A program made the translations under genes and the position numbers. Source: a virus (Duplodnaviria; Heunggongvirae; Uroviricota; Caudoviricetes). Taken from it: a stretch of DNA of 64,000 nt. Below the pieces are notes generated by a model. It made no database searches. It saw only the letters and a program-made list of their open reading frames with translations, and had not been told where the DNA came from. This document shows, one piece after another, positions 909 to 50,650 of this stretch. The stretch is taken from IMG/VR virus record IMGVR_UViG_3300042940_001739; one strand, written 5' to 3'. How positions within the stretch are numbered: the stretch's first letter is position 1; each line of letters starts with the position of its first letter.

Positions 909-947
909 TTCGGTTGGTTTTTAGTGATAAATTCATTATATTATAAT
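909..947 (+). promoter_or_regulatory. Class II upstream motif (GGTTGG..TTCATTATATTATAAT) directly abutting the ATG
   Basis: Shares the TTTCaTTATATTATA core with 12 other sites. Preceded by TTTTTTACTGTTCGGTTGG, which also occurs at 43027. Confidence 0.4.
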
Positions 948-1907
948 ATGAAAGAAAATGTAAATTACATTGCACCAATATACAAGTTAGCTCTTCGCGA
1001 TGCTACAACGGTACCTAGAAAGATATCATATTCACAATGGTCAATGTATGAGAAATGTCCGCAACAATGGAAACTAGCATACATTGATGGTTTAGCACCA
1101 TTCCAATCTAGCATTGATACTTGCTTCGGAACAGCGTTCCATGAAACATTACAAACATACTTAACTGTAATGTATACAGACTCAATTAAACGAGCTGATG
1201 CAATTGATTTACGTGAATTGTTAACTACCAATCTTCGCAATGAATATGCAAGAACAGTTACCGAATTAGGAGGCGAACATTATTCAAACCCATTACAGTT
1301 AGCAGAATATCTAGAAGACGGAGCTGCAATATTGCAATGGTTTAAGAATCGTCGTGCTACATACTTCTCAACTAAAGATTGGGAATTAGTTGCAATCGAA
1401 ATGGAACTATGTACACAAGCATCTCCAGCCAATCCATCAGTATTTTGGTATGGTTTTATTGATGTTGTTTTGAGAAACACAAAGACTAATGAAATCTTGA
1501 TCATTGATATTAAAACGAGTCGTCAAGGTTGGAATAAATATCAAAAAGCAGATTCAGTGAAAATGGCTCAGCTTATTGCATATAAAAATTATTTCTCACA
1601 ACAATTTGGAACACCTAAAGAAAAGATCAATGTTGAGTTCTTTATTGTGAAAAGAAAGTTGATTGAAGAGTCAATGTTCCCACAAAAGCGTATTCAACAA
1701 GTAATTCCAGCATCAGGAACAGTTACACAAAAGAAAGTTCAAAAAGCAATTGACAAATTTGTTGAAGATTGTTTTGATTTAGAAGGAAACAAGAATGCTG
1801 ATAGGAACTATATGGCATTAGCAGGTAAAGGTGCAAAGAATTGTAAGTATTGTCCGTTCAAAGAAGATTATGCAAATTGTTCTAAAGAAAATAGGATTCG
1901 AGAATAA
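948..1907 (+). CDS. PD-(D/E)XK nuclease with Cas4/RecB-like Fe-S Cys cluster (phage exonuclease-like)
   Basis: N-terminal Cys (EKCPQQW), IDVV...IIDIKTS ((D/E)xK) and C-terminal CKYCPFKEDYANC. The ORF track starts at GTG 924; ATG 948 is more likely. Confidence 0.55.
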   Translation: MKENVNYIAPIYKLALRDATTVPRKISYSQWSMYEKCPQQWKLAYIDGLAPFQSSIDTCFGTAFHETLQTYLTVMYTDSIKRADAIDLRELLTTNLRNEYARTVTELGGEHYSNPLQLAEYLEDGAAILQWFKNRRATYFSTKDWELVAIEMELCTQASPANPSVFWYGFIDVVLRNTKTNEILIIDIKTSRQGWNKYQKADSVKMAQLIAYKNYFSQQFGTPKEKINVEFFIVKRKLIEESMFPQKRIQQVIPASGTVTQKKVQKAIDKFVEDCFDLEGNKNADRNYMALAGKGAKNCKYCPFKEDYANCSKENRIRE

Positions 1908-1925
1908 AATTCATTATATTATAGT

Positions 1926-2135
1926 ATGAAAAGATACACTCACAAACATGTTTATGTATATCAGTTCGAGTTATCAGGTCGAGACAGTTCTAGAGTAGAA
2001 CATGAATATACATTGTGTACTAATGTTGACAATCCTAATTGTAAAGAAAATAGAACTTTATTAGAATCAATGTTGCGATTAGTTTACGGGCATATGCCAA
2101 AAGGTGTTAAATTTTTATATGAAAAAGCATCATGA
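1926..2135 (+). CDS. Hypothetical small protein
   Basis: ORF directly preceded by the class II motif ttcattatattatagt. Confidence 0.3.
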   Translation: MKRYTHKHVYVYQFELSGRDSSRVEHEYTLCTNVDNPNCKENRTLLESMLRLVYGHMPKGVKFLYEKAS

Positions 2136-2536
2136 CAAAAGTAGCAGTTATAGGAAGCACGGGTTGGCAGAATAAAAGAAAAGTCCAACAAACATTGCAA
2201 GAACTAAAAAAGAAATTTCAAGATGATTTAGTAGTTATTGGCGCCGGTGGCAATGAAGGAGCTAATCATATGGTTAGAAAGTACTCAATTGAATTCGGAA
2301 TTGAGTATAAAGAATTTAATCCATCTTTTTCAGGATTTAATTTATATTCAGCAATGCCAGAATCATATTATGGTAAAGCATATCATTTTAGTCAATTACA
2401 TCATCGAATGAAACTTATCGCACAACAATGTGATTATATGATGATATTAACTACAGAGACAGCGTTAGATCCTGTATTAAAGACAGCATTCACAAATGTC
2501 AAAAAATTAGAAAAACCGGTGGTTATCTTAGGATAA
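2132..2536 (+). CDS. Hypothetical protein, Rossmann-like (possible SLOG/DprA-like fold)
   Basis: VAVIGSTGW...VVIGAGGNEGA glycine-rich loops. ATGA overlap with the upstream ORF. Confidence 0.3.
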   Translation: MTKVAVIGSTGWQNKRKVQQTLQELKKKFQDDLVVIGAGGNEGANHMVRKYSIEFGIEYKEFNPSFSGFNLYSAMPESYYGKAYHFSQLHHRMKLIAQQCDYMMILTTETALDPVLKTAFTNVKKLEKPVVILG

Positions 2537-2566
2537 TCATATTTATATTAAAGTTATAAGGAAAAA

Positions 2567-4057
2567 ATGGAGTTACCAAAGTTACAAAAGATTGACCCTA
2601 ACAAGCCGCAAAAAAAGAAAATTTTGTTGTTAGGCGATGATTTTCGATTACCTTCTGGAATTGGAACAGTTAGTAAAGAGATTATTTTAAATACAGTTAA
2701 AGAGTTTGATTGGATTCAATTAGGAGCTGCAATTAATCACCCAGATGCTGGCCAAGCATTTGACTTATCTCAAGAAATTGCAAAAGAAACTGGAGTTGAA
2801 GATGCCTCAGTTAAATTGATTCCTTGGAACGGTTATGGAGATAGAAATATTCTATTTGCAATTATTAATCAAGAACAGCCAGATGCAATTCTTCATTTTA
2901 CTGACCCTCGTTATTGGACATGGCTATATGCAATTGAGCATGAGATAAAAACAACATTCAATATTCCAATTACATATTATTCAATTTGGGATGATTTACC
3001 ATATCCTATGTGGAACGCGCCATTTTATGCTAGTTGTGATATGATTATGGGAATTAGTAAGCAATCAGATAATATACATAGAGAAGTTCTTAAACAGAAC
3101 GGTATTCCAGTAATTAATTATGATGAAGGCGATTCATTACCGATGGATAAGAAATGGAATCAGGTTTTAACTGGTTATGTGCCACACGGATTGAATCATA
3201 ACATATTTAAGCCATTATCTGCATCAGACGATCTTTTGATTTCAATGAAGAAACAAATCAAAGAAACGCATAAAGTTGATTTCGTTGTAATGTGGAATAA
3301 TCGTAATATTCGTAGAAAACAACCAGGAGATGTAATTTTAGCATTTAAAACGTTTGTAGATAAATTACCAGAAGAACAACGTAGCAAAGTAGCATTGTTA
3401 ATGCATACACAGCCAGTAGATGAAAATGGAACAGACCTAAGAGCTGTTTGGAAGACATTAGCACCTGATTGTAAAGTTATCTTTTCAGAACAAAAAATGT
3501 CTGCACAAGATCTTAATGCAATGTATAATGTAGCAGATGTTGTAGTTAATATCGGATCAAATGAAGGATGGGGACTTAGCTCAACTGAAGCAATCTTATC
3601 AGGAACACCGATTATTAACAATGTAACGGGTGGATTACAAGACCAATGTGGTTTTGAAGATGAACATGGTAATTGGCTTAGATTTGATGGTGAATTTTCA
3701 ACTAATCACACCGGGAAATTTAAAAAACATGGATTATGGGTTCAACCAGTATTCCCTAGCAATAGATCATTGCAAGGATCACCACAAACACCTTATATTT
3801 TTGATGATCGAGTAAAATTTGAAGATGTAGCAGAAGCAATAGCATATTGGTACAATATGACAGAAGAAAATCGTACTGCTGCTGGATTTGAAGGTAGAAC
3901 ATGGGCGTTAGCTAATGGGTTGACAGCAGAACAAATGGGTAACAAAATGATATCAATGTTCCGCGACTTATTTTCAATGCATAGAGAATTAAGACCGTTA
4001 TTTACGGTAACAAAAGTTGAACCAACAAGATATCAATTAACAGGAATTGTAGAATAA
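2567..4057 (+). CDS. Glycosyltransferase, GT-B fold (GT1/GT4-like)
   Basis: EGWGLSSTEAILSGTPII matches the EX7E-type donor-binding motif of group-1 glycosyltransferases. Confidence 0.55.
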   Translation: MELPKLQKIDPNKPQKKKILLLGDDFRLPSGIGTVSKEIILNTVKEFDWIQLGAAINHPDAGQAFDLSQEIAKETGVEDASVKLIPWNGYGDRNILFAIINQEQPDAILHFTDPRYWTWLYAIEHEIKTTFNIPITYYSIWDDLPYPMWNAPFYASCDMIMGISKQSDNIHREVLKQNGIPVINYDEGDSLPMDKKWNQVLTGYVPHGLNHNIFKPLSASDDLLISMKKQIKETHKVDFVVMWNNRNIRRKQPGDVILAFKTFVDKLPEEQRSKVALLMHTQPVDENGTDLRAVWKTLAPDCKVIFSEQKMSAQDLNAMYNVADVVVNIGSNEGWGLSSTEAILSGTPIINNVTGGLQDQCGFEDEHGNWLRFDGEFSTNHTGKFKKHGLWVQPVFPSNRSLQGSPQTPYIFDDRVKFEDVAEAIAYWYNMTEENRTAAGFEGRTWALANGLTAEQMGNKMISMFRDLFSMHRELRPLFTVTKVEPTRYQLTGIVE

Positions 4058-5289
4058 TGAGAAAAGTAGTTATAGCGTCGCCAGTAGCGACACAGTCAGG
4101 ATATGGTCATCATGCACGTGAAATTATCACAAACATTATTGAACAACGCGGCAAAGAATGGGATGTTAAATTAGTTTCATTACCGTGGGGACATACCCCA
4201 ATGACATATCCAATATCAGTAGATTTACAACTTCGTATTATTCCATTGCCATTACAAGAACAACCTGATATTTGGATTCAAGTTTCAGTTCCAAATGAGC
4301 TTCAAGCAGTAGGTAAATATAACATAGGAGTCACTGCGGGAACTGAAGGAAGTATTTGTCCTGCAGAATGGATTGACAAACTAAATGCAATGAATTTAGT
4401 AATTGTCCCGAGCGAATTTACAAAGTCAGTATTTGAAGAAACTGCAAAACAATCTAATAAAGTAATAACTACTAAAATTGAAGTAGTACCAGAATATTTT
4501 GATGAAACAGTTTATACAAACAAACAAGTTAAAAACTTAGATGAGTTAAATTCAATTGAAGAGGATTTTGCATTTTTATCAGTTGGACATTGGCTTCAGG
4601 GTCAACCCGGAGAAGATCGTAAAAACGTTAGTGGATTAGTTCATACATTTTTAAATACATACCAAGGAAAAAAAGATGCACCTGCATTAATATTAAAAAC
4701 GAGTGGTGCTACTTATAGTATCATGGATCGAATGGATATTGAGGATCGTATCAATCAAATTAGAAGCATGTTTGCTACAACGAAACTACCTAATATATAT
4801 TTAGTGCACGGCGAGTTAACTGATGATGAAATGAATTCATTATACAATCACTCTAAAGTTAAAGCAATGGTATCATTTACTAAAGCTGAAGGATTCGGCC
4901 GACCATTATTAGAATTTGCATCAACAGGTAAACCAATTATCGCTCCACACTATTCAGGACAAGCAGACTTCCTTAAGAAAGATTTTATTTGTGCATTACC
5001 TGGAGCACAAACTCCAATACACCAATCAGCTCAAAATGAGTTTTTAATTGAAGGTGCAACATGGTTTACTCCAGATTATGGATATGCTGGTAAAATGATG
5101 CAGGAGATACAAAAGAATTACAAGAAATGGTTAGAGCTAGGAAAAAGACAACGCTATTTTGTGACTTCATCATTTACTAAAACTGCAGTAGCAGAAGTAT
5201 ATGAACGTATATTATCTGATATTGATTCAGGAATAGAATCTATTCCAATGGCGATGCAATTAAAACTTCCTAATTTAGAAACACTATGA
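4057..5289 (+). CDS. Glycosyltransferase, GT-B fold (group 1)
   Basis: AEGFGRPLLEFASTGKPII motif. Start overlaps the stop of the previous gene. Confidence 0.55.
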   Translation: MRKVVIASPVATQSGYGHHAREIITNIIEQRGKEWDVKLVSLPWGHTPMTYPISVDLQLRIIPLPLQEQPDIWIQVSVPNELQAVGKYNIGVTAGTEGSICPAEWIDKLNAMNLVIVPSEFTKSVFEETAKQSNKVITTKIEVVPEYFDETVYTNKQVKNLDELNSIEEDFAFLSVGHWLQGQPGEDRKNVSGLVHTFLNTYQGKKDAPALILKTSGATYSIMDRMDIEDRINQIRSMFATTKLPNIYLVHGELTDDEMNSLYNHSKVKAMVSFTKAEGFGRPLLEFASTGKPIIAPHYSGQADFLKKDFICALPGAQTPIHQSAQNEFLIEGATWFTPDYGYAGKMMQEIQKNYKKWLELGKRQRYFVTSSFTKTAVAEVYERILSDIDSGIESIPMAMQLKLPNLETL

Positions 5290-10996: not shown

Positions 10997-11418
10997 TGAA
11001 AACAATTCCACTAACAATATCACTTTTAGCAACAACGACCATGACATTCATCGGTACATATTTTTATAATCTTACAATGGATTACTCCGATCAGTACTTG
11101 GGGTTGATCGCTGTGGTGTTGTTTGATGGGTTTTTTGGAATTATAGCAGGAACAAAACGAGAGGGCTTTCAAACATGTAAGGCCCTCAAAGTTTTACGTA
11201 CAGCAGTTACATGGGTCATACTTTTAACGGTATTGTTATTAGTCGAAAAAGGTTTTAAAGGTACGTCGTGGTTGAGTGAAACAATATTAGTACCATTCAT
11301 GGTATTTCAGTTATTAAGCGCCTTGAAGAATGCTTCAATGGCTGGTTTTATTAAAACAGAAGTATTAAACCGCATCATGGATGCATTTGACAAACACAAA
11401 GGAGAAAGAACCGAGTGA
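10996..11418 (+). CDS. Multi-pass membrane protein, holin-like
   Basis: Three or four hydrophobic helices in 140 aa, adjacent to lysis genes. Confidence 0.4.
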   Translation: MKTIPLTISLLATTTMTFIGTYFYNLTMDYSDQYLGLIAVVLFDGFFGIIAGTKREGFQTCKALKVLRTAVTWVILLTVLLLVEKGFKGTSWLSETILVPFMVFQLLSALKNASMAGFIKTEVLNRIMDAFDKHKGERTE

Positions 11419-13337
11419 AACACGTAACAAGATTATTATTATTTTTATTAGCATTTATCCCAATGCTAAGTTTTGGACAATCTGGACCACCAGCTCCAAG
11501 TACTGGTATTTGGGCTATTATCGATACAACTTATACAGTTGGAACAACAACTCAAGGGGTAACAGAAGCTAAATTAACTTTAAAGAATACAACATTAACA
11601 AAATACACTGGTGTCCAGTTTAGAGTATTCTATGATAAAGTAGCATTCGTAAATGCATCAGTCGCACTATTAGGTACCACTACGAACCTAGATATGCAAC
11701 AAGTAGTAAATGCAGCAAATGGATATATCACAGTAACATTGGTATATACTGGTTCAAGCTCTACTTATACATTAGCTGATCAAGAAACATTTAAAATTAC
11801 ATTTACACACGCAGCACAATCGGTATTCAACAACTTGACGTCAATTGATGACTTAACTTGGACTGGAGTTCAAACATTCCCACAAGGAGCGGCAGCACAA
11901 GACGGATCAGACGTAACATTAGGATTACATTCATATGGTGGTGAATTCATATTCCAAAATTTTGATTATCACGGAACATTTACTAACGTTACAGGAACAC
12001 CTGCTAAAAACTTAACATTAGCATTAGAGAAACGTCCTGCAACGGGTGGTAGTTGGACACAAGTAAATACTTATACAACTGATATCAATGGCGACTTTGC
12101 AATTTCAGAACCAATTGATACAACTTATTGGGATGTTCGTTTAGCAATACAAGGCGATACAATGTTAGCAGGAAATGTTATTTCAACTTCGGATGCACAA
12201 CTTGTTAATCAATGGGTATTAGGAACATCAACAATGTCTGGATTTGATTATTATGCAGCAGATGTAAATGGATCTAACAATACTACAATAGCAGATGCAT
12301 ATGGTGTATTTGGTAGAGTATCAGGAAGATTCTCTGTATGGCCTAACAACGTACAAGACGTTAAATTCTTTACAGCAACAGAATATGCAACAATTAACGG
12401 TTCAGCAACCAACTACACTGCAACAATACCAGGCGCAACTAACTTTACATTTGACATTGTACCAGGAGCACCTGATTCAGTTGTATATTATGTAGCAGTA
12501 CCAGGTGATGCAAATGGAACAGGTTACCATATGGCACGTATTACTCCAATTGAAATTTTAATTGATCCAACACCTGGAGTTGAATCTCAAATTTACAATG
12601 TTATTGACAACAAAGTAGAATATGATTTTGCAACTTCACAAATTGAGGTTAATGTACCAAGATTAACAGTTCAAGAAGGAAACGTAGTTAATATACCAGT
12701 AAAAGTGTTTACAAATGGCATTGATTTGAATGCATTGCAATTTGGATTGAAATATGATCCAGAACTATTATCATTTAGTGGTGTTTATGCAACTTCTAAT
12801 GCAACAGAGTGGTTAACTTATATTAATCCTAATGATGGACAAGTTGATTGGGGAGGCTATGACGTCACTGATAATAAAAGTCCATTAAAAGACGGCGACG
12901 AGGTTATTACAATGCAATTTGTAGCATTAAAACCACAAGCACAATGGGATAACAGTCCTTTGTCAACAACTGACAAATTTGCAGGTAGAGCAGGAACATC
13001 TAAAGACTTAACAATTACTCCAACTAATGGAATTATCCAAGTAGTTAAAATGAGTGACAATGTTATTTCAATTGATAACAATAGTATGCAAATTGTACCT
13101 AACCCAGTTAAAGATGTTGTAACAATTGTATTCAATGTATTAGAACCAACAAATGCATCGTTAACAATTAGAGATTTACAAGGAAGATTATTAATGGATA
13201 TTGTCTCAGGTCAAATACCACAAGGACAATTTTCATATCAAGCTAATTTAGGTAAATTAGCAACAGGTTTATATATTGCAACACTTTCAATGGAAAATGG
13301 AGTGTTTATAGCAGAAAAATTAGTAAAACAGGATTAA
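11415..13337 (+). CDS. Secreted protein with T9SS type-A C-terminal sorting domain (Por_Secre_tail)
   Basis: N-terminal signal peptide (LLLFLLAFIPMLSFGQ) and a C-terminal ~80 aa matching the T9SS CTD (NPVKDVVTIVFNV...LTIRDLQGRLL...GLYIATLSMENGVFIAEKLVKQD). Confidence 0.65.
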   Translation: MKHVTRLLLFLLAFIPMLSFGQSGPPAPSTGIWAIIDTTYTVGTTTQGVTEAKLTLKNTTLTKYTGVQFRVFYDKVAFVNASVALLGTTTNLDMQQVVNAANGYITVTLVYTGSSSTYTLADQETFKITFTHAAQSVFNNLTSIDDLTWTGVQTFPQGAAAQDGSDVTLGLHSYGGEFIFQNFDYHGTFTNVTGTPAKNLTLALEKRPATGGSWTQVNTYTTDINGDFAISEPIDTTYWDVRLAIQGDTMLAGNVISTSDAQLVNQWVLGTSTMSGFDYYAADVNGSNNTTIADAYGVFGRVSGRFSVWPNNVQDVKFFTATEYATINGSATNYTATIPGATNFTFDIVPGAPDSVVYYVAVPGDANGTGYHMARITPIEILIDPTPGVESQIYNVIDNKVEYDFATSQIEVNVPRLTVQEGNVVNIPVKVFTNGIDLNALQFGLKYDPELLSFSGVYATSNATEWLTYINPNDGQVDWGGYDVTDNKSPLKDGDEVITMQFVALKPQAQWDNSPLSTTDKFAGRAGTSKDLTITPTNGIIQVVKMSDNVISIDNNSMQIVPNPVKDVVTIVFNVLEPTNASLTIRDLQGRLLMDIVSGQIPQGQFSYQANLGKLATGLYIATLSMENGVFIAEKLVKQD

Positions 13338-14375: not shown

Positions 14376-14425
14376 GCGGTTGGATATTAACAAATTAATC
14401 ATTATATTATATAAGGAAATGTATC

Positions 14426-18575: not shown

Positions 18576-18611
18576 TTTGTATTTACGGATTATTTTCATT
18601 ATAATATCAGT

Positions 18612-31368: not shown

Positions 31369-31393
31369 TTTCTTATATTATAAAAAAGAAGTT

Positions 31394-31840: not shown

Positions 31841-31843
31841 ACA

Positions 31844-32257: not shown

Positions 32258-32259
32258 AT

Positions 32260-33856: not shown

Positions 33857-34834
33857 ATGAGTAACATAGAACATGATTATCTTAGACTCCTTAAGGATAT
33901 CCTAGACAACGGAGTCAAGAAAGAAGATCGAACAGGTACTGGAACAATCTCAGTATTTGGAAGACAAATTAGACACAAGATGTCTGAAGGTTTCCCTTTA
34001 CTGACTACTAAGAAGATGCCTTTCAATTTAATTGCAACGGAATTGATTTGGTTTTTGATGGGGGACACGAACATCAAGTTCCTTGTTGATAACAATTGTC
34101 ACATTTGGGATGGTGATGCATATAAGAACTATTGTGTATCTTACAAAGACGGTCACGAGTTTTATGAAGATGAAGAAGTAAAACGTTCATACACACAAGA
34201 AGAATTTATCAACAAAATCAAAACAGATGATGAGTTTGCTAAGAAGTGGGGTGATTTAGGTCCTGTGTATGGGAAACAATGGAGAGAATGGAATTGCTAT
34301 AAATGGGATAAGATTGATTTCGATACTCGAATAGAATACACTGACCAAATCGCAAACCTAATCGATGATCTTAAAACAAACCCTGATAGTAGAAGACTAA
34401 TGGTTACTGCCTGGAATCCTGCAGAATTAGACCAAATGACACTTCCTCCTTGTCATTATGGGTTTCAATGCTATGTCAGAGATGGTAAGTACCTCTCTTT
34501 AATGTGGAATCAAAGATCAGTTGATACATTCTTAGGTTTACCATTCAATATAGCATCTTACGGTTTGTTATTAGAAATGATTGCTCGAGAAGTTAATATG
34601 ATCCCTGATGAATTAATTGGAAATTTAGGCGATGTACATTTATATTCAAATCATATTGAACAAGCTCGGGAACAGATTACAAGAGAGCCATTGAGATTAC
34701 CTACATTAAAAATGAGTTCAGGTCACAATTTTAGAGCAGCATTGAAAGCTAACAAAGATGAGATTGATTTGAATGATTTTATTCTGTTAAATTATAATGC
34801 TCACTCACATATTAAAGCACCTTTAAGTAATTGA
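33857..34834 (+). CDS. thyA: Thymidylate synthase (ThyA)
   Basis: EDRTGTGTISVFG, GDLGPVYGKQWR and LPPCHYGFQCYV (catalytic Cys) motifs. Confidence 0.85.
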   Translation: MSNIEHDYLRLLKDILDNGVKKEDRTGTGTISVFGRQIRHKMSEGFPLLTTKKMPFNLIATELIWFLMGDTNIKFLVDNNCHIWDGDAYKNYCVSYKDGHEFYEDEEVKRSYTQEEFINKIKTDDEFAKKWGDLGPVYGKQWREWNCYKWDKIDFDTRIEYTDQIANLIDDLKTNPDSRRLMVTAWNPAELDQMTLPPCHYGFQCYVRDGKYLSLMWNQRSVDTFLGLPFNIASYGLLLEMIAREVNMIPDELIGNLGDVHLYSNHIEQAREQITREPLRLPTLKMSSGHNFRAALKANKDEIDLNDFILLNYNAHSHIKAPLSN

Positions 34835-34845
34835 TATTTATTAAT

Positions 34846-36901: not shown

Positions 36902-37324
36902 ATGGAAGCATTAAATACACACCCAATCAAAAAAAGTGACCTAGGTTTTCACGGCAATCTATTCGGAGGTAAACTCTTATCATGGATAGATGCTTCCGCC
37001 GCAGGATACGCTATGCAATTGTGTGATACGCCCCGTATGGTGACAGTATCAATTGATCAATGCAACTTCGAACGTCCAGCAAAAGAATCTCAATTGCTAA
37101 AGATATATGGAGAGCCTGTTAGGGTAGGTAACACATCAGTAACATTATATATGGAAGCACGTGCGCATAATGTATATACCGGCAAACAAGATCTTGTATT
37201 AAAAACTAATACTACATTTGTTCAGATTGATGAAGGAGGCAATGCAATACCTTTAGGTGAAAAGGCAAAAGAGCGTATACGCAATCTTTTATTAGAAAAA
37301 TCTAAGGGAGAACTTGGAAAGTAA
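36902..37324 (+). CDS. Acyl-CoA thioesterase, hot-dog fold (YciA-like)
   Basis: HGNLFGGKLLSWIDASAAGYA...VTVSIDQCNFERPAK pattern. Confidence 0.6.
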   Translation: MEALNTHPIKKSDLGFHGNLFGGKLLSWIDASAAGYAMQLCDTPRMVTVSIDQCNFERPAKESQLLKIYGEPVRVGNTSVTLYMEARAHNVYTGKQDLVLKTNTTFVQIDEGGNAIPLGEKAKERIRNLLLEKSKGELGK

Positions 37325-37358
37325 TTGATTTTTCTTTATAATATATAAAAATAAAGAG

Positions 37359-37514: not shown

Positions 37515-37596
37515 GCCTAGGTGTTGGAATTGGTAGACATAACGGTCTTAGAAACCGTGGCTGAAAAGCGTGAGAGTTCGAGTCTCTCCCAAGGTA
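37515..37596 (+). tRNA. tRNA-Leu (anticodon TAG), type II with long variable arm
   Basis: GGAATTGGTAGAC D-loop; anticodon stem ACGGT/ACCGT with loop CTTAGAA; T-arm GAGAG-TTCGAGT-CTCTC. One acceptor mismatch (5:68). Confidence 0.55.
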
Positions 37597-37648
37597 CACA
37601 GACAGTAACGGTAGCGCGTACGCAAGGTTTAAACGCCGTTACTAGCAT

Positions 37649-37720
37649 GTTCCGTTAGTGAAGCGGTCAACACGCTGCACTTTCACGGCAGAGGCACGGG
37701 TTCGATTCCCGTACGGAATA
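37649..37720 (+). tRNA. tRNA-Glu (anticodon TTC), tentative
   Basis: Cloverleaf by hand: acceptor GTTCCGT/ACGGAAT, T-arm ACGGG-TTCGATT-CCCGT, anticodon loop CTTTCAC. 31:39 mismatch. Confidence 0.4.
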
Positions 37721-37725
37721 CATAT

Positions 37726-37798
37726 TGCGGGGTGGAGAAGATGGTATTCTCGGCGGGCTCATAACCCGAGGACGCAGGTTCGAATCCTGTCCCCGCTA
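37726..37798 (+). tRNA. tRNA-Met, initiator type (anticodon CAT)
   Basis: Close to the E. coli tRNA-fMet pattern: GCGGGGTGGAG..., anticodon stem with three G:C pairs (CGGGCTCATAACCCG), unpaired 1:72, T-arm GCAGG-TTCGAAT-CCTGT. Confidence 0.6.
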
Positions 37799-37862
37799 CT
37801 AGAGCGATCCACCGTGCGCTATATAAAAAAGGTTGCGTTGGCAATGTTACACGGTGGACGAT

Positions 37863-37946
37863 GCCCGGGTGGTGGAATAGGTAGACACGCCGGACTTAAA
37901 ATCCTGTGCCTGTATGGGCGTGCGGGTTCAAGTCCCGCCCCGGGTA
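37863..37946 (+). tRNA. tRNA-Leu (anticodon TAA), type II
   Basis: GCCCGGGTGGTGGAATAGGTAGACAC...CTTAAAA...GCGGGTTCAAGTCCCGCCCCGGGTA, near-identical architecture to E. coli leuZ. Confidence 0.65.
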
Positions 37947-38071
37947 CAAAGAGAAGTGGCAAGCTGTAGTAATAATTAGGAGCCTAAACCGCGAAAAAGG
38001 GTTAATAGTAGCGAATCCGGAGGCATTGTTATTACCAGTAACCCCGAAAGACCCGAAGCTTCTCTTTATTT

Positions 38072-38145
38072 GGTCTTTTAACTCAGTTGGTTAGAGTAGC
38101 TCGCTCATAACGAGAAAGTCCCAGGTTCGAGTCCTGGATGGACCA
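38072..38145 (+). tRNA. tRNA-Met (elongator) or tRNA-Ile2 (anticodon CAT)
   Basis: TAACTCAGTTGGTTAGAGTA D-arm, loop CTCATAA, T-arm CCAGG-TTCGAGT-CCTGG. Acceptor has one mismatch. Confidence 0.5.
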
Positions 38146-38182
38146 CAAAATATATAATTAATTAAATAAAAAGTTAAATAGT

Positions 38183-39094
38183 ATGAAACACGCATTATCA
38201 TCTAAAGGATTGTCATTATCTCAAGCACAATCAATTTCAAATCTTTGTAACCAAAGAAGCCGAGACATTCAATCAAATATTTCAGTAATCAACAATGCTG
38301 AAAAGATACTTAAGTTCGAAGGAGCAGATTTAGTATCGCAAACTGGTAACCCAATGCCAGCAAACATTGTTGAATTGTTACAAGAAAAGTCTCGTTTGCA
38401 TGCAACTCAAGCATTCTTAATGGAAAACATCAAAGCTAAGGAGGAGTTGCTAGCAAATGAACGAAGAGCGTCATTACGATTTGAAAAAGAGTCTCCAAAC
38501 TCTCCGGATTTTGAATATGCAGAAGAATTAGATCATGTATCTGAGTCTTGGGGTTGGGATCAATTGACAACGTCTCAGTGGGAAGAATACTTAGAAGCTG
38601 AAGCTTACGCATCTCATATTGGTCAATTTATTCATAAAGGTGGCAAATTAGATGAGTTGCGTAAGGAATTACCAACTATGGAATTGTTAGAGTGGGCAGA
38701 AATTGAAACTGGAAAGAAAACTCCAGTGCAAGTTGAGAAACATCACACGTTATCAGGGTTGTCAGCAATTCACGAAGAATTATCCATGTTGCACCGAGGA
38801 TATGAACAACGAGTTAACTATTTCAAGGCTATGGTTAAGAATGCAGTAACCGTTGAAAATGCTAGACGAGAGCGTGTAAATGCAGACGAGGCCGCGCGCG
38901 TTAATCAAATCAATGACGTATTGAAGTCTGATTATGACACGCTTCGAAGAGAATGGATTGAAGCTAGAAAACAAGCAGAGTTTGCTTTCAATGAAGCTAA
39001 GCAAAAAGAAATTGCAAGAATTGCAGCATTGAGAATTGAAGTTCCAGCTCGATTCCAACCAGTAGTTGATGAGTTCCTTAAAGGATTAGAATAA
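38183..39094 (+). CDS. Hypothetical protein (coiled-coil rich)
   Basis: ORF only. Confidence 0.3.
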   Translation: MKHALSSKGLSLSQAQSISNLCNQRSRDIQSNISVINNAEKILKFEGADLVSQTGNPMPANIVELLQEKSRLHATQAFLMENIKAKEELLANERRASLRFEKESPNSPDFEYAEELDHVSESWGWDQLTTSQWEEYLEAEAYASHIGQFIHKGGKLDELRKELPTMELLEWAEIETGKKTPVQVEKHHTLSGLSAIHEELSMLHRGYEQRVNYFKAMVKNAVTVENARRERVNADEAARVNQINDVLKSDYDTLRREWIEARKQAEFAFNEAKQKEIARIAALRIEVPARFQPVVDEFLKGLE

Positions 39095-39101
39095 TTGGGT
39101 T

Positions 39102-39141
39102 AGCATACGGGATAAGCACAAGCCGTGTCTCGTATGCTTTT
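39102..39141 (+). terminator. Rho-independent terminator (agcatacg...cgtatgct + TTTT)
   Basis: 8-bp stem, 21-nt loop, T-run. Confidence 0.5.
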
Positions 39142-39149
39142 ATGTTGGA

Positions 39150-39440
39150 TGATGAAGTTTTTTATGATATATAAAGATACATATAAACTACATTTAGGAA
39201 ACCTGCTCTGGTGGGTTTCATGACTCTGCGCTAATGCGCTCACATCCGCTTCCTTTACAAACTACCAAAACTGAGATAGAACTCAATTGATAGACAGGTT
39301 AAGTACCTAGCGGCGTACAATTGGCTATCGAACGGACTTAGTTTTTGATTTTGTCTTTGCAGTAAGGGAAGGTCTTTGATTTGGCATTTGACTATGATTT
39401 AGTCTATATGCTTTATCATCCAGCAACTCGATATTATTAT
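39150..39440 (+). ncRNA. Candidate non-coding transcript between two terminators
   Basis: ~290 nt with no ORF longer than 24 aa, bounded by the terminators at 39102-39141 and 39441-39467. Internal hairpin gaaacc-tgctctggtg-ggtttc. Confidence 0.25.
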
Positions 39441-39467
39441 GCCCTAGCAGAAATGTTAGGGCTTTTT
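39441..39467 (+). terminator. Rho-independent terminator (gccctagc-agaaat-gttagggc + T5)
   Basis: Conserved hairpin family with the AGAAAT loop. Confidence 0.55.
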
Positions 39468-39503
39468 ATTTGGATATATAAACATTATTCTATATAATAT
39501 AGT

Positions 39504-40244
39504 ATGAAGATTACATTGATAAGCGATACACATACAAAGCATCGTAATATTGGTACTGCAAAAGATTATCGCAAAAATAATCAGCCGTTGGATTTGCCTG
39601 GTGGCGACATATTGATTCATGCCGGCGACTTTATGAACTCAGGTTATAATCCGATGGAAGCGATGGAGTTCTTTAAGTGGTTTGATGAAATAGACAATTA
39701 TGATACAAAAATATTCATTGCCGGCAATCATGATCGTTGGATGCAAGATGCGTCGGAAGAAGCACGAGGCATCTTAACGGGATATAAGACCATTGAATAT
39801 TTGCAAGATGAAGATCTTGTTTTGTACTTTGATGGACCAAATGGAGATCATCCAGAAGATAATGTTCGCATCTATGGTTCACCTTGGCAACCGGAATTCT
39901 TCAATTGGGCATTTAATTTGCCTCGCAATGGAGAAGAATTGAAAGCACGTTGGGATGAAATTCCAGAACGCACAGACATTTTAGTAACACATGGACCTCC
40001 CTTTGGTTACCAAGATATTCCAGGTGGACAAAGTATACGAGTTGGATGTGAAATGTTGCGTTATCGAATAGATGAAATTAAACCAAAAATCCACGTGTTT
40101 GGACATGTTCATGGTGGTTATGGTCACTATTACAACGGTCATACACATTTCTTCAATGCTTCAGTATTAGACGAAAGATATAGTTATACAAACCTTCCAT
40201 TCACATTCGAATGGAACCAAACAACAAATGAAATAACATGGTAG
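39504..40244 (+). CDS. Calcineurin-like metallophosphoesterase
   Basis: ISDTH, GDFMN and GNHD motifs. Class II motif upstream. Confidence 0.65.
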   Translation: MKITLISDTHTKHRNIGTAKDYRKNNQPLDLPGGDILIHAGDFMNSGYNPMEAMEFFKWFDEIDNYDTKIFIAGNHDRWMQDASEEARGILTGYKTIEYLQDEDLVLYFDGPNGDHPEDNVRIYGSPWQPEFFNWAFNLPRNGEELKARWDEIPERTDILVTHGPPFGYQDIPGGQSIRVGCEMLRYRIDEIKPKIHVFGHVHGGYGHYYNGHTHFFNASVLDERYSYTNLPFTFEWNQTTNEITW

Positions 40245-41428: not shown

Positions 41429-41662
41429 ATGAAAGGTATTATTGTTAAAACAAAGGACAAGTGTGTTATTGAATATGAAACAGGCACAGTGCCTTTAAAG
41501 GTATCGCTACCTATTCATCCAGATGACATCAAGCAAGTTGAATCAGGTCAACTAGTAGAATTCATGATAGTTGATGAGTTTACTCATCCGCAACTATTCT
41601 ATAATGTAGGTTGGGGCGATGGAATAACTTGTGGAAAAATAATTAGCCAATTGGTTGGATAA
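41429..41662 (+). CDS. Hypothetical small protein
   Basis: ORF only. Confidence 0.3.
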   Translation: MKGIIVKTKDKCVIEYETGTVPLKVSLPIHPDDIKQVESGQLVEFMIVDEFTHPQLFYNVGWGDGITCGKIISQLVG

Positions 41663-41699
41663 TTCAAATTGTTTTCTTATTATATAGAAAATAAGAGTT

Positions 41700-41882
41700 A
41701 TGGAACAATTAGCAATCATTGCATCATTATGTAGCCTCCCGGCAGTATTATTCATGATGATGGCAAACGTAACCGGGTCTGGCGCTAGCAAGACAATCGG
41801 ATTTATCTTTTTGAAAATACCATCATTTATTACATTGATTGTACTAGTTGTGATGGCATTGAAAGCACTTAAATTAATCTAG
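41700..41882 (+). CDS. Small two-helix membrane protein
   Basis: Hydrophobic throughout. Class II motif upstream. Confidence 0.3.
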   Translation: MEQLAIIASLCSLPAVLFMMMANVTGSGASKTIGFIFLKIPSFITLIVLVVMALKALKLI

Positions 41883-42176: not shown

Positions 42177-42494
42177 ATGAAGATCACAAAAGAAATGGTA
42201 ATGAAGAATGCTAAGAATGTGTTAACAGTAACAGCATTTGCAGCAGTCGCAACAGCAGCTTTTCAATTAGGAGCTAAGTATCAATCGGGTAAAAAAGAGC
42301 AAGTAGCAGTAGAAAATCCATACGCTCATGCATTCTCTCCAGAGGAAATATCAATTGCAGTTAATGAATCATCCGAATTGATTATGATTGAGCGCAAGAC
42401 AGGAAAGTATATTGTATACTCAGATGCAATTGGTCAAACAATCTTCGGAATGTACGCTAACCGTTTACACCAAGAGGCAAATGGTATTAAATAG
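42177..42494 (+). CDS. Small membrane-anchored hypothetical protein
   Basis: TM VLTVTAFAAVATAAF. Confidence 0.3.
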   Translation: MKITKEMVMKNAKNVLTVTAFAAVATAAFQLGAKYQSGKKEQVAVENPYAHAFSPEEISIAVNESSELIMIERKTGKYIVYSDAIGQTIFGMYANRLHQEANGIK

Positions 42495-43005
42495 TATCAA
42501 AGTAGGCGTTGTGGTAGGTGCATTGGCAGTTACCACATTTGCCGTTACGGATACAACGAGTCCTCCACAACAAGATTCAGTAGTCCGTAATCCGGAAAGA
42601 ATAGATGTTGCAAGTCCACCTTGTTTGCAAATGTATAAATACATCAAAGCCTATGCAGACACATTTGACATTCCATTAAGGTTTGCATTTGGTATTGCTA
42701 GAGTTGAAACAGGATACACAGGACCAATGCAATGGAGATATCAGCCAGCACAAACATCTTGCGCAGGAGCGGTAGGTCCGATGCAGGTTATGGTTGCAAC
42801 AGCAAGGTATATCAATAAAGATGATGTAACCAAAGAAAGGTTAAGAACTGATATCAAATACAATATTAGAACTTCAATGAAGCTATTGCGTAGGTTGTAT
42901 AATTTGCGAGGTGATTGGAAGCTAGTATTTGGAGAGTACAACACCGGTAGGCCATGTGTTAATGGCTATGCACATAAAGTTTATAACCATCAGATAGCAT
43001 GGTAA
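42484..43005 (+). CDS. Lytic transglycosylase, SLT domain, with N-terminal membrane anchor
   Basis: FGIARVETGYTG (catalytic Glu) and GPMQVM motifs. The track ORF 42388 overlaps the upstream gene; ATG 42484 is preferred. Confidence 0.55.
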   Translation, partial: VLNSIKVGVVVGALAVTTFAVTDTTSPPQQDSVVRNPERIDVASPPCLQMYKYIKAYADTFDIPLRFAFGIARVETGYTGPMQWRYQPAQTSCAGAVGPMQVMVATARYINKDDVTKERLRTDIKYNIRTSMKLLRRLYNLRGDWKLVFGEYNTGRPCVNGYAHKVYNHQIAW

Positions 43006-43010: not shown

Positions 43011-43033
43011 AGGCTCCTTCGGGAGTCTTTTTT
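43011..43033 (+). terminator. Rho-independent terminator (aggctcc-ttcg-ggagtct + T6)
   Basis: TTCG tetraloop hairpin followed by TTTTTTACTGTTCGGTTGG, the same 3' context as at 899. Confidence 0.6.
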
Positions 43034-43088
43034 ACTGTTCGGTTGGATTGTTAATATATTTTTCTTATTATATAGAAAATAAAAAGCT

Positions 43089-43718
43089 ATGATTAACAAT
43101 ATAAAACAAATAAAACCGTTACTGAACTTTTCGAAGCCAGGCGACTTTTATATGCTTTATGTTTTTAAGCGTAAGAAAGATCAACCCGAAGGCGAGCGAG
43201 ACAATCATCAATCAGTAAGAACTATTAAAACTTATTGTATTGAAAGTATTGACCATCTAGAACGTCGTTATGATGAGGTAATGGAACTATGTGAGATGTT
43301 TAAGGCTCGTGCTTATATCCATGTACAGAAACAAAATCATTTTGATGTTAGTTTGAATATGATGGTTGCACTTGCTCAACGCATTCAAGATGGCAACATG
43401 AAGCAACAAGGTTTATTTGATTCTGTTGTAGGTCAAATTAAGACACAAGAGAAACGTTGGGTAATTGATATTGACAATGTTTCGATAGATGCCTTTGCTC
43501 ACGCTCCATACTATATTCAGATGAGATTATATATTGATGAACTACAAGAGGAAGCTGGCGTAGATCAAACTAAGACATTCATAAAAACTAATTCTGGTTT
43601 TCATATCATTACGCAACCTTTCAATACAAAGAAGTTTGCCGAAAGATATCCAGATGTTGATATACAAAAGAAGAACCCGACACTATTATATTACCCAAAT
43701 AGTTTAACAAACAAATAA
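43089..43718 (+). CDS. Hypothetical protein
   Basis: Class II motif upstream. Confidence 0.3.
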   Translation: MINNIKQIKPLLNFSKPGDFYMLYVFKRKKDQPEGERDNHQSVRTIKTYCIESIDHLERRYDEVMELCEMFKARAYIHVQKQNHFDVSLNMMVALAQRIQDGNMKQQGLFDSVVGQIKTQEKRWVIDIDNVSIDAFAHAPYYIQMRLYIDELQEEAGVDQTKTFIKTNSGFHIITQPFNTKKFAERYPDVDIQKKNPTLLYYPNSLTNK

Positions 43719-45471: not shown

Positions 45472-45520
45472 AGGTTGGAATTAAATGTATTATTTCTTAT
45501 AATATAGAAAAGAAAGATAT

Positions 45521-46909
45521 ATGACAATCAAACAAATTTTTGACGAAATAGCAGCAGAGCCAGGTACAAACCAAAAGATGGTTATCTTGGGTAAATACCG
45601 AGACAACAAACTCTTAGAACAAGTGTTGTACCTGGCTAATTCGAAGCGTGTCAAATTTTATATCAAGCAACTCCCGGAGTATCTATTTTTTCCTAGTGGT
45701 GAAATGGGATTAGATTCAGCATTAGACGCATTGACTGAATTATCTTCAAGAAAGGTAACGGGTCATTCAGCTATTGGTCATTTGGTTCATATATTATCAT
45801 CATGCACGCCAGATGACTCTTATATCATTGAGCGTATCATTGAGAAAGATTGTCGCTTAGGAATGGGTACAACAAACATCAACAAAATATTTAAGGATCT
45901 TATTGAAGATACTCCTTACATGGGAGCAATTTCATTTGATGAAAAGAAGGCACGTGCAGTGTTTAACAACGACAAACGTGCTTATTCACAGATCAAAATG
46001 GATGGACGTTATTGCAATGCAATTATTCGTAACGGCGAAGTTGAATTAGAATCTCGTCAAGGTGAGCCAACCATAGTAACTGGTGCAACCTTTTTGCAAG
46101 AGTTAGCAGACTTTCCTGATTGTGTATTGAATGGAGAGTTGACTATCGATGGAGTATCTCGCTATGAGTCTAACGGAATCATTGCATCTATCATCAGCAT
46201 CTTAAGTAAAAAGGAATCGCGAGGTCCTGCAGAGACATTGAAACATATTGCTAAGTTCCAACAAAAACATGGAGACTTCTCTGTGGCATTAGAGTCAATA
46301 CGCTTTACGGTTTGGGATACAATCACAGTAGATGAATACTTTGATCAACGTTCGACAACACCTTATTCAGAACGCATTGTTAACTATTCAACGGCACTAT
46401 ATGATTTGAAACCTACAATGATATCTGCAGTTGAAATGCACGATGTAGCAACATATGAAGAAGCAATCCGATACTTCCAAGAAGCATTAGCAGATGGCCA
46501 AGAAGGAACAATACTTAAGGCAATTGATGGCGGATGGAAAGATGGTAAACCAAATTGGCAAATCAAAATGAAACTTGAAATGGATGTGGATCTTCGCATC
46601 ACAGGTTTCAATTATGGTACCGGAAAGAATATCAACGTCATATCTTCGGTTAATGCTGAATCAAGTGATGGTAAGGTTGTTACTCGTCCGACAGGCATTA
46701 ACGAAGCTATGATGCAATACATTACCGACAATCAAGAAACATTGTTAGGTAGCGTTGTGGAATGTAAGTGTTCCGGATTGTCTCAAGACTCTGATGGTAA
46801 CTATTCATTGTTGCATCCAGTATTCAAATCGTTGCGTGATGATAAAGACACTTGTGATGACTTGCAATCAATCATTGCAATTGAAAATATGGTTAAAGGA
46901 TTAGCGTAA
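45521..46909 (+). CDS. ATP-dependent DNA ligase
   Basis: Motif I KMDGRY (KxDG). Motif IV/V region EGTILKAIDGGWKDGKPNWQIKMK. Class II motif upstream. Confidence 0.7.
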   Translation: MTIKQIFDEIAAEPGTNQKMVILGKYRDNKLLEQVLYLANSKRVKFYIKQLPEYLFFPSGEMGLDSALDALTELSSRKVTGHSAIGHLVHILSSCTPDDSYIIERIIEKDCRLGMGTTNINKIFKDLIEDTPYMGAISFDEKKARAVFNNDKRAYSQIKMDGRYCNAIIRNGEVELESRQGEPTIVTGATFLQELADFPDCVLNGELTIDGVSRYESNGIIASIISILSKKESRGPAETLKHIAKFQQKHGDFSVALESIRFTVWDTITVDEYFDQRSTTPYSERIVNYSTALYDLKPTMISAVEMHDVATYEEAIRYFQEALADGQEGTILKAIDGGWKDGKPNWQIKMKLEMDVDLRITGFNYGTGKNINVISSVNAESSDGKVVTRPTGINEAMMQYITDNQETLLGSVVECKCSGLSQDSDGNYSLLHPVFKSLRDDKDTCDDLQSIIAIENMVKGLA

Positions 46910-49561: not shown

Positions 49562-49795
49562 ATGACACTTAAAGAATACATAGAAGGATTACAATTGTTC
49601 GCTAAGGAGAATCCAGATGCATTAGAGTTACAAGTTATTACCGCCGCAGATGATGAAGGCAATGGATACAAGCAAGTTCATTACAGTCCAACGAAAGGAA
49701 ATTATGATAACGATGATGATAGTTTTATTTCAGACGTCTGCTTTGAAGAATGGGACATGGAAGATGCTGAAGTCAACGCAGTCTGTGTAAATTAA
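49562..49795 (+). CDS. Acidic hypothetical small protein
   Basis: ORF only. Confidence 0.25.
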   Translation: MTLKEYIEGLQLFAKENPDALELQVITAADDEGNGYKQVHYSPTKGNYDNDDDSFISDVCFEEWDMEDAEVNAVCVN

Positions 49796-49807
49796 AATAA
49801 CCTCAAA

Positions 49808-49832
49808 GTGTCTGCTTCGGTAGGCACTTTTT
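49808..49832 (+). terminator. Rho-independent terminator (gtgtctgc-ttcg-gtaggcac + T5)
   Basis: 8-bp stem with two G:U pairs, TTCG loop, TTTTTACTG tail. Confidence 0.55.
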
Positions 49833-50272
49833 ACTGGGCGTCCAAACTAAGTAGAAGATTAGCAGTTTACGGATAAGCTTCTAAATAATAATATTGCAAC
49901 GAAGAGTAACGTAACGAATACAACAAGTATTATAAGTATATGTGTTAATAAGAGAACGTAGAGTAAGACTCGAACAAGTAAGTATTTAATTTTACCCTGG
50001 CCCAGCAAGACTCTGGTGTCTAATAGAAAGATGACCTTCATAGATATTGTCAATGTTTCCCAGTATAATATTGATACATTCTATGTATGGTAGTAGAGAA
50101 ACGGTGTCTAGTAAAGGAATGTAAGGATGGTAATGCCCCTTTCAGCCGTTCCTATTTATTTACGCGGGGCATAGACTCTATATTGCCGGCCTCTGAATAT
50201 CAGTAATCCATACAGGCCTAAATGTTCTTAAACGCGAACTAAGAGGCTGGAGATGGAGGAGAGGGTATAGGC

Positions 50273-50550
50273 TATTTTTAGTCCAATACCAACGTATTTT
50301 TAGACGTAAGCACTGATTCTATTTTTAGAAGGATATCCTATTTTTAGATCACGATTCATTTTTAGATGCGTTGTGTCATTATATATAGTATCCTGAATGC
50401 TTCTATTTTTAGACGGATTAGTTCTATTTTTAGAAGCTTATGTGTTATGGGTTCTATTTTTAGACGATTTTTAGAGCAATATGCCGTTATTTTTAGAATC
50501 TATTTTTAGATGCATGCCGCACTTTTAGAACGTATATGCGGTTTTAGTTC
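50273..50550. repeat. Iteron-like array of ~13 direct repeats, core (C)TATTTTTAGA(N)G
   Basis: Copies start at about 50273, 50296, 50319, 50338, 50357, 50403, 50424, 50454, 50466, 50488, 50500, 50520 and 50541. Spacing is mostly 19-23 bp. No ORF. Confidence 0.7.
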
Positions 50551-50600
50551 GGTTTGCTAGCTATTGAGAGACGAAACTTTCCGGAATATTTGCGCGCGTA

Positions 50601-50650
50601 TGGTTGGATTCTAGACATAGATTTCATATTATATAAATGTAAATAAGAAG
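50601..50650 (+). promoter_or_regulatory. Class II promoter-like motif (tGGTTGGATt...TTTCATATTATATAAatgtaaataag) with no protein gene downstream
   Basis: Same bipartite motif as upstream of 26585, 41700, 43089 and 45521. Confidence 0.4.

Follow-up and report, generated by a model that had tools for sequence, protein, structure and literature searches.

That a phage may encode a sigma factor with a promoter class of its own is a well-known principle. The middle promoters read by gp28 of the Bacillus phage SPO1 have the consensus AGGAGA-N17-TTTnTTT, the sigma-dependent promoters of phiEco32 and Salmonella phage 7-11 rely mainly on a -10-like element, and the middle stage of T4 keeps a host-type -10 element and involves no phage sigma. 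In phiEco32, where the sigma is gp36, and in 7-11, two reports describe a phage sigma that serves middle and late genes after an early phase run by the host sigma (PMC12276001, PMC4331800). Here we describe a candidate sigma switch in a 64,000-nucleotide stretch (the window) of an uncultured member of the Caudoviricetes, IMG/VR record IMGVR_UViG_3300042940_001739. The window contains 15 copies of a bipartite motif (class 2), all on the + strand between positions 912 and 50638, followed by a block of early (class-1) promoters that encloses the gene for a phage sigma factor, the probable reader of class 2. The promoter code of the Bacteroidota, the phylum of the predicted host, differs from the textbook one, and to our knowledge almost nothing is known about the timing of phage transcription there.

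The class-2 motif reads (G/A)GTTGGA(T/A)-N12-TTyCwTATwwTATAg. In terms of hexamers it consists of TTGGAw (box positions 3-8) and TATwwT (box positions 26-31) separated by 17 nt, which is sigma-70 geometry. The original prediction listed 13 positions as sharing a motif; 12 of these are strong members of one family (27-40 bits, compared with 14 bits for the next-best match in the window), whereas the one at 18593 (box start 18575) scores only 10.5 bits and belongs to the family since its orthologs reach 24-30 bits. Two sites, with box starts at 22086 and 24874, were absent from that list. The gap had been described as a variable N19-23, a figure that arose because distances were measured to inconsistent start points; exactly 12 nt separate the 8-mer from the TTyC box at every site. 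Eight box positions are invariant in the 14 strong sites (T3, G6, T22, T26, A27, T28, T31 and A32), and three of them, T26, A27 and T31, which form the T-12, A-11, T-7 pattern of sigma-70-family -10 elements, are also present in 100% of 135 sites from related phages. Conservation extends to both flanks of the -10 hexamer, with TTyCw at -17 to -13 and A-T-A-g at -6 to -3. Two other -10 assignments, TATATA with a 20-nt spacer and TTTCAT with a 12-nt spacer, were considered and rejected; only the TATwwT register yields an invariant T-A-T-x-x-T at 17 bp.

Scores from a position weight matrix are bimodal: the 14 strong sites, all on the + strand, lie at 26.8-39.9 bits, and shuffled sequence reaches 22 bits at most with a tighter matrix. 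The matrix was built from the clear sites and is therefore fitted to the sites that it scores, which is offset by three other lines of evidence, namely motif counts, the footprint upstream of the CobS gene and a selection on the -10 element only. The first of these is the motif enumeration that had been suggested as a check, here run on the window: TTGGAW-N17-TATWWTA has 11 matches, on the + strand only, against 0.11 expected from shuffles. The upstream box GGTTGGAT occurs 10 times (1.6 expected) and TTYCWTATWWTATA, with at most one mismatch, 18 times (2.3 expected). A generic scan for TTGACA/TATAAT finds enrichment nowhere in the window, and the specific motif alone stands out.

Fourteen of the 15 sites lie 5-23 nt before the start of an open reading frame (ORF); site 50602, the exception, is not followed by an ORF. 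Start codons fall into two groups by their distance from the -10 hexamer, 5-6 nt for sites 912, 1890, 18575, 22086 and 39468 and 14-23 nt (mostly 16-17) elsewhere, and the same two peaks appear in the 135 related sites. A terminator scan places terminators directly before sites 912 and 39468; the GC-rich hairpin and T-run before site 43041 were read by eye and are absent from the scan's list, and most of the remaining sites overlap the end of the preceding gene. The hairpins at 873-902 and 39441-39462 have a near-identical stem and loop (GCCGTAGCAGAAATGTTGCGGC, GCCCTAGCAGAAATGTTAGGGC), and a class-2 promoter comes immediately after each of them, which suggests repeated use of a terminator-promoter cassette. 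Sites 912 and 43041 had been noted to share an identical 17-mer after their terminators. The sharing is real, but the common sequence, TTTTTTACTGTTCGGTTGG, is 19 nt long, and its copies lie at 899-917 and 43028-43046 rather than 43027-43045. Overall, the sites have two boxes, a spacer with a constant length of ~17 bp, T-12, A-11 and T-7, and a location upstream of genes and oriented with them, as in bipartite promoters of the sigma-70 family. The 15 sites are almost certainly promoters, and the evidence supports their being a distinct class with sigma-70-family geometry.

The motif is maintained in related phages. Its exact 35-nt pattern (23 specified bases) is found in 47 IMG/VR stretches, on contigs of up to 173 kb, where by a rough estimate ~0.01 chance matches are expected in a collection of that size. 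Loci with the exact motif and loci with a homolog of the sigma gene together give 84 related loci (loci are denoted by L and a number), and the 135 unique sites they contain are co-oriented within each locus. The information profile of these sites shows two high-information blocks and a nearly information-free spacer. Since this set was chosen with the matrix, an unbiased test was run on CobS orthologs from 80 related loci (69-86% protein identity); the 100 nt preceding each of these genes gave 62 unique sequences. Conservation at the 90% level is limited to TTGGA, TATT..TAT..T and the start context G.TATGAA. There are zero indels between the two boxes while the spacer sequence varies freely, and nothing can be aligned 5' of TTGGA. 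Such a footprint is as expected for a promoter under selection.

Selection on the -10 element only separates the two classes. Class-2-type -10 elements define 115 unique sites, of which 102 have TTGGAT (77) or TTGGAA (25) 17 nt upstream and none of the 115 has TTGACA or TAGGAT there. Early-type -10 elements define 337 unique sites, with TAGGAT (145), TTGGAT (43), TTGACA (42) and others at the same distance. As the selection on one box yields different hexamers in the other, the classes differ in both boxes, the pattern that recognition by two different sigma factors would produce. The class-2 motif is unchanged in every relative whose sigma is at least 60% identical, and nine contigs, themselves fragments, carry both the exact motif and a sigma homolog (60-77% identity). 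Motif and sigma are each widespread in the family.

The host can be assigned to a phylum from the phage proteins themselves. Three of them contain sorting domains of the type IX secretion system (T9SS), identified in Pfam as Por_Secre_tail, CHU_C and SprB. These domains point to a host in the Bacteroidota. The proteins concerned are encoded at 11415-13337 (Por_Secre_tail and cohesin), 15967-17715 (Ig_7 and C-type lectin) and 34831-36897 (CHU_C, SprB repeats and PKD), and they may be secreted or surface proteins during infection. Promoters of this phylum have been described in Flavobacterium johnsoniae, where the -7 element TAnnTTTG has near-invariant T-12, A-11, T-8, T-7, T-6 and G-5, and transcription starts 4-5 nt downstream of the element (PMC6847099).

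The misfit between the class-2 -10 element and this consensus, already noted in the original prediction, is confined to particular positions. T-12, A-11 and T-7 are present in all 14 strong sites, T-8 in five and T-6 and G-5 in none, and the absence of the last two places class 2 outside the host TAnnTTTG class. Compared with Bacteroidota SigA promoters (-33 TTTG and -7 TAnnTTTG), class 2 has the same three invariant bases, a -10 element that likewise extends downstream of the hexamer, and a TTG 20 nt upstream of the TA. This last feature, seen as GTTG or TTTG, is in the same register as in L086 (1-12663), from an unrelated 356-kb viral contig. The sigma encoded there is 42% identical to ours and is surrounded by ~18 textbook Bacteroidota promoters of the form gTTTGGnn-N17-TAyCTTTGca, which make a useful host-type reference set. 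Class 2 differs from SigA promoters in that A and T mostly replace T-6 and G-5, T-8 is mostly A, TTyCw is conserved at -17 to -13, and the -35 box is strictly TTGGAw. Class 2 also resembles the TTGACA-N17-TATAAT consensus of E. coli and B. subtilis, with a 17-bp spacer, four of six bases matching at -35 and five or six of six at -10, and invariant T-12, A-11 and T-7. However, class 2 has the additional flanks TTyCw and ATAg, and this consensus is not used by the host (PMC6847099).

The phage-encoded sigma factor that had been postulated is indeed present, in a separate block of host-type promoters. Its gene (53543-54283, + strand) encodes 246 amino acids with the Pfam domains Sigma70_r1_2, r2 and r4, and its product is the proposed reader of class 2. 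The best sequence matches in the PDB are SigA and RpoS, and those in a plasmid collection are RpoD/SigA proteins of Bacteroidota. In alignments the protein is 37% identical to RpoD/SigA of B. finegoldii (286 amino acids, taken from a plasmid-collection record), 35% to a Hymenobacter paralog and 31% to E. coli sigma-70. In region 2.3-2.4 it shares KFI(S/T)xAVW and LQxAL with Bacteroidota, whereas E. coli has KFSTYATWW and ITRSI, and these phylum-specific residues point to a derivative of the Bacteroidota lineage.

Although the lineage is clear, there are differences from Bacteroides SigA at positions known to contact DNA. Region 2.3-2.4 carries the substitutions Y430F, W434Y, Q437A and S438E, and region 4.2 carries R584N (E. 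coli numbering), while E585, R586, R588 and Q589 of region 4.2 are retained. About 40 residues of region 3.0-3.1 are missing; regions 1.2 and 2, a 3.2-like linker and region 4 are kept. In established sigma-70 genetics, Q437 and T440 contact the -12 base, and R584 contacts base five of the -35 hexamer, which is a C in TTGACA and an A in TTGGAw. Bacteroides SigA keeps R584, and the early class tolerates TTGACA. These correspondences are suggestive but not proof.

In region 2.3 the phage sigma reads KFITFAVWY. The signature KFI[TS]FAV[WF] is rare among 185,579 genomes, being confined to one mis-binned phage contig and the sigma paralogs of two genera, Mucilaginibacter and Pedobacter. The GTDB genomes that share it do so through chromosomal paralogs of ~250 amino acids. 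A scan of genome contigs with the sigma alignment returned these chromosomal paralogs and the mis-binned phage contig only, and no host SigA. No class-2 motif is found at the Mucilaginibacter and Pedobacter paralog loci.

The block that encloses the sigma gene (50964-56990, + strand) contains 12 promoters of the form AAAAGATTAGGAT-N17-TATCTTTA. They can be summarized as TAGGAT/TTGACA-N17-TATmTTTA (50.97-56.94 kb), and most of them drive a single small orphan ORF or a pair of such ORFs. Of the six near-invariant bases of the host TAnnTTTG, their -10 region matches five. More distant relatives retain TAT(A/C)TTTA at -10, while their -35 varies among TAGGAT, TTGACA, TTGGTA and TAGGTT. The sigma gene lies inside the early block, with the last class-2 site just upstream of the block, in the window and in every relative examined; in L069 and L075 an early-type promoter stands ~50-70 nt upstream of the sigma gene. 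The halves of the early promoters form an imperfect inverted repeat (AAAGATTAGG ... CTTATCTTT), and a small conserved hairpin, ATTAGGGAAAGGTCCTTAAT, follows five or six of them.

Taken together, these features suggest the following programme. On infection, host Bacteroidota RNA polymerase with its own SigA would transcribe the early block (50.97-56.9 kb) from promoters whose TAT(C/A)TTTA -10 regions agree with the host -7 element, and so give rise to the phage sigma. This shortened relative of SigA would then bind the host core polymerase and direct it to the class-2 promoters across 0.9-50.6 kb, which host SigA itself would read poorly because T-6 and G-5 are lacking. Transcription is predicted to start ~6-7 nt past the -10 hexamer, with +1 at box position 37-38, and would thus produce leaderless mRNAs at the five short-distance sites and leaders of ~11 nt (AAAATAAGAGnTATG) at the other ten. 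The 'middle' timing of class 2 is inferred solely from gene content and from where the sigma gene lies.

Reading of class 2 by the phage sigma is the best-supported assignment from the sequences at hand, and we give it a probability of about 0.65. It is favoured because the class-2 -10 element is of a non-host type, and because the -35 box is strictly coupled to it and distinct from that of the early class. It is also favoured by the sigma itself, whose gene sits among host-type promoters and whose contact positions are changed while region 4 is retained.

Several observations weigh against this assignment. The main uncertainty is a third motif, ATATTTATTAATAT(G), present at five sites, which the phage sigma might recognize instead. 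The class-2 -35 box has a host-like TTG at a host-like distance, and TTGGAT is also found in early-class promoters, so the -35 box alone does not exclude host SigA. Neither the class-2 nor the early motif is present in the 12 kb covered at the distant sigma loci L085-L092 (26-42% identity). Finally, the window shows 64 kb of a genome of roughly 150-170 kb, and other transcription factors or polymerases may be encoded elsewhere.

The first of two alternatives that we consider unlikely, and about equally so, is that the unmodified host SigA holoenzyme reads class 2 as a second early or constitutive flavour of promoter, the phage sigma serving another class such as ATATTTATTAATAT(G). This would account for the host-type geometry, with TTG at the host -33 distance, for the retention of T-12, A-11 and T-7, and for the existence of a third motif with no assigned reader. 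However, it would require SigA to act on 14 strong sites that all lack T-6 and G-5, only five of which have T-8, and over hundreds of sites both boxes keep class 2 strictly distinct from early promoters. Moreover, the conserved region 4.2 of the phage sigma fits a promoter with a -35 box, whereas the third motif has no conserved -35.

The second is that host SigA is remodelled by phage proteins in the manner of AsiA and MotA of T4; GGTTGGAT would then function as an activator box and not as a target of sigma region 4. This possibility, raised in the original prediction, is consistent with the G-G before TTGGA, which extends beyond a normal -35 hexamer, and such factors could be among the many small orphan early proteins. 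A PHROGs search with ten small early ORFs gave zero matches and AsiA-like or MotA-like families were not detected, although this search is insensitive. Remodelling is harder to reconcile with the -10 element, which is the part of class 2 that departs most from the host element, whereas the -10 of T4 stays host-type. The presence of a dedicated sigma with substitutions at contact positions also speaks against remodelling.

That class 2 is read by another phage-encoded polymerase or factor from outside the window is improbable. Only ~40% of the family genome is visible, contigs reaching 173 kb, but the bipartite layout with a low-information spacer of 11-12 nt and a T-A-T-x-x-T -10 element is typical of the sigma-70 family and unlike the contiguous promoters of single-subunit polymerases, and no polymerase gene is found among the ~50 window ORFs scanned. 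Least probable of all is a non-promoter role, as operators for a DNA-binding protein or as mobile or recombination repeats between genes, since despite the length and strong conservation of the motif and an inverted -35 copy near 50602, the sites share a single orientation with the genes, stand at fixed distances from start codons, several directly after terminators, and in orthologs vary freely in the spacer with the boxes fixed at sigma-70 spacing.

The third motif is an exact 14-mer, ATATTTATTAATAT, with five copies on the + strand (23682-23695, 34834-34847, 57804-57817, 60577-60590 and 63310-63323). At three of the five it is fused to ATG, its last AT and the following G making the start codon. 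In relatives, 35 of 38 unique instances of TATTTATTAATAT are likewise followed by G to make ATG, often directly after the stop codon TGA of the upstream gene. The motif has no conserved -35. Three readings are conceivable: it may be a late promoter that has a -10 element only and gives leaderless mRNA, mark translational junctions, or be what the phage sigma actually recognizes. A three-tier programme can be drawn up if the phage sigma reads class 2: SigA would act on TAnnTTTA early, the region-3-less phage sigma on TTGGAw-N17-TATwwTATAg, and the later genes would use TATTTATTAATATG, -10-only and fused to start codons. This scheme is tentative and, in our estimation, falls a little short of an even chance.

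The substantial ORFs of the window are all on the + strand, with a GC content of ~35%. About 50 window ORFs were scanned, 30 large ones against Pfam and further ones against families including PHROGs, and the gene content is phage-like: a PD-(D/E)XK nuclease, glycosyltransferases, CobS-like and CobT-like proteins, GroEL, thymidylate synthase, five tRNAs, a metallophosphoesterase, an SLT transglycosylase, an ATP-dependent DNA ligase, a lysozyme/GDSL protein and an RNA-repair set (Pnkp phosphatase, P-loop kinase and RNA ligase). Characterized relatives are lacking. No match was obtained when 8 kb were compared by megablast with 50,697 phage records, the CobT-like and sigma proteins find only distant matches of at most 36% identity among isolated phages, and thus no characterized relative could be used. 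No description of the motif or of the phage family was found in the searchable literature.

The class-2 sites had been proposed to stand before replication and nucleotide-metabolism genes. Such genes are among those downstream, but the restriction is too narrow, as the downstream genes also include a 12-kb glycosyltransferase block, T9SS-tagged proteins, GroEL, the RNA-repair set, tRNAs, the SLT transglycosylase and orphan ORFs. The first site (912-948; GGTTGGTT-N12-TTCATTATATTATAA; 33.1 bits) comes directly after the terminator at 873-902 and precedes the PD-(D/E)XK nuclease gene (948-1907; Pfam PDDEXK_1), the ATG of which is 5 nt past the -10 hexamer. Site 1890-1926 (AATAGGAT-N12-TTCATTATATTATAG; 27.3 bits) has TAGGAT, the commonest early-class form, as its -35 hexamer. 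With an ATG at 1926, also 5 nt past the -10, it heads a block extending to ~14375 that encodes glycosyltransferases and a T9SS-tagged protein. Site 14378-14414 (GGTTGGAT-N12-ATCATTATATTATAT; 34.6 bits) lies upstream of an ORF at 14426-16036, whose exact start is uncertain, and the Ig/lectin-domain protein at 15967-17715. The weak site 18575-18611 (ATTTGTAT-N12-TTCATTATAATATCA) has an ATG at 18612, 6 nt past the -10, and its strong orthologs are found in L005 (position 2287), L009 (5080) and L044 (1998).

The two added sites share the upstream box ATTTGGAA. Site 22086-22122 (ATTTGGAA-N12-TTCCTTATTATAAGT; 26.8 bits) has an ATG at 22122, 5 nt past the -10, and orthologs in L026, L044 and L047; site 24874-24910 (ATTTGGAA-N12-TTTCTTATTTTAAAC; 29.5 bits) lies upstream of an ORF at 24921-25121. 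Next come site 25245-25281 (30.8 bits), upstream of the CobS-like AAA_5 ATPase (25299-26447; Pfam), and the best-scoring site, 26538-26574 (GGTTGGAT-N12-TTTCATATTATATAG; 39.9 bits), which precedes the CobT-like gene (26585-28696) and following genes including GroEL (29268-30893). The CobS-like and CobT-like genes and a full-length GroEL thus lie together at 25299-30893. Site 31349-31385 (28.4 bits) has a weaker -35 box, ACTTTGAA. Downstream of it are the Pnkp phosphatase (31394), the kinase, the RNA ligase (32260) and thymidylate synthase (33857), the RNA-repair set (31394-33408) being near the five tRNA genes. These tRNA genes (37515-38146) and a 50-residue ORF are downstream of site 37312-37348 (29.5 bits).

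Site 39468-39504 (29.9 bits) follows directly on the terminator at 39441-39462 and precedes the metallophosphoesterase gene (39504-40244), whose ATG is 5 nt past the -10; the arrangement is identical in L032 and L034. Site 41653-41689 (36.0 bits) is upstream of genes from the ORF at 41700-41882 through the SLT transglycosylase (42388-43005). Site 43041-43077 (37.4 bits), which shares its 19-mer with site 912, comes after the GC-rich hairpin GGCTCCTTCGGGAGTC and a T-run and precedes an ORF at 43089-43718 (phrog_14949). Site 45473-45509 (39.1 bits) is upstream of the ATP-dependent DNA ligase (45521-46909; Pfam). The last site, 50602-50638 (34.8 bits), keeps the same position in relatives. It reads into GC-rich non-coding DNA, ~330 nt long, which extends as far as the first early promoter, and its -35 box recurs in inverted orientation (ATCCAACC) at 50662-50669.

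Several non-coding stretches adjoin these elements. The GC-rich stretch at 50636-50965, between site 50602 and the first early promoter, has no + strand ORF and is partly conserved with L063, small ORFs occupying that position in some relatives. This stretch, which may act as a non-coding RNA, has a minimum-free-energy z-score of -1.96, and an alignment of four sequences was poor. Immediately 5' of the last class-2 promoter and the early block, ~240 bp of non-coding sequence (50273-50510) hold 11 direct copies of TATTTTTAGA, eight of them exact, and similar arrays occupy the same place in L080 (~1834-1900) and L077 (~3920-4100). The array is iteron-like and may be a replication origin or a regulator-binding array. 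At 39095-39440, ~350 nt between the gene at 38183-39094 and the terminator, downstream of the tRNA cluster, are free of ORFs. An Rfam search of the window returned the five tRNAs only, with zero matches in the non-coding stretches, these included. At 57480-57640, where the early block gives way to the genes that start from 57816, there are G-run/C-run repeats, GGGGGGAGTAATAGCCCCCC followed by TTTTTTT, GGGGTAGCCCCCC and GGGGGGTGGGGGAGGG.

The motif, the early class and the phage sigma together make a concrete, testable sigma-switch model in a family that is common in environmental viromes, with 249 CobS relatives and more than 1,200 sigma relatives. If the three-tier programme holds, no sigma switch would have been defined earlier in a phage of Bacteroidota, and it would be a natural case in which a few substitutions shift a sigma from TAnnTTTG to a TATAAT-like specificity. 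As the phage sigma and SigA differ at few contact positions, the pair could reveal the residues that set the TTTG half of the -7 element, and the promoters and sigma are possible orthogonal parts for engineering Flavobacteria or Bacteroides. The leaderless mRNAs predicted at about one third of class-2 sites would be unusual for the phylum, given that 87% of predicted F. johnsoniae transcripts have leaders of more than 10 nt (PMC6847099).

The known phage systems resemble class 2 to different degrees. Promoters of T7-like single-subunit polymerases are unlike it, as the motif is bipartite and no polymerase domain is found in the scanned window ORFs. The middle promoters of T4, with their MotA box and AsiA-remodelled sigma-70, are similar in being a post-early class whose upstream box differs from the host -35, but the class-2 -10 is not host-type and a phage sigma is present. 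Closer are phiEco32 and 7-11, which have a phage-encoded sigma-70-family protein and an early phase on host sigma; class 2 differs from their promoters in coupling a strict -35 box to the -10 at 17 bp. The closest analogue in mode of action is the gp28 middle class of SPO1, an established system that is also described in PMC13401047. The sequences are unrelated, the host phylum differs, and the sigma described here is of the SigA lineage (37% identity) whereas that of SPO1 is highly diverged. Nevertheless, both phages encode a sigma, and the one described here has its gene embedded in a block of host-type promoters and carries altered promoter-contact residues relative to Bacteroides SigA. In both, a sigma made early from host-type promoters redirects, or here would redirect, the host core to a bipartite non-host class, and in both the early region consists of numerous small ORFs that have strong promoters of their own.

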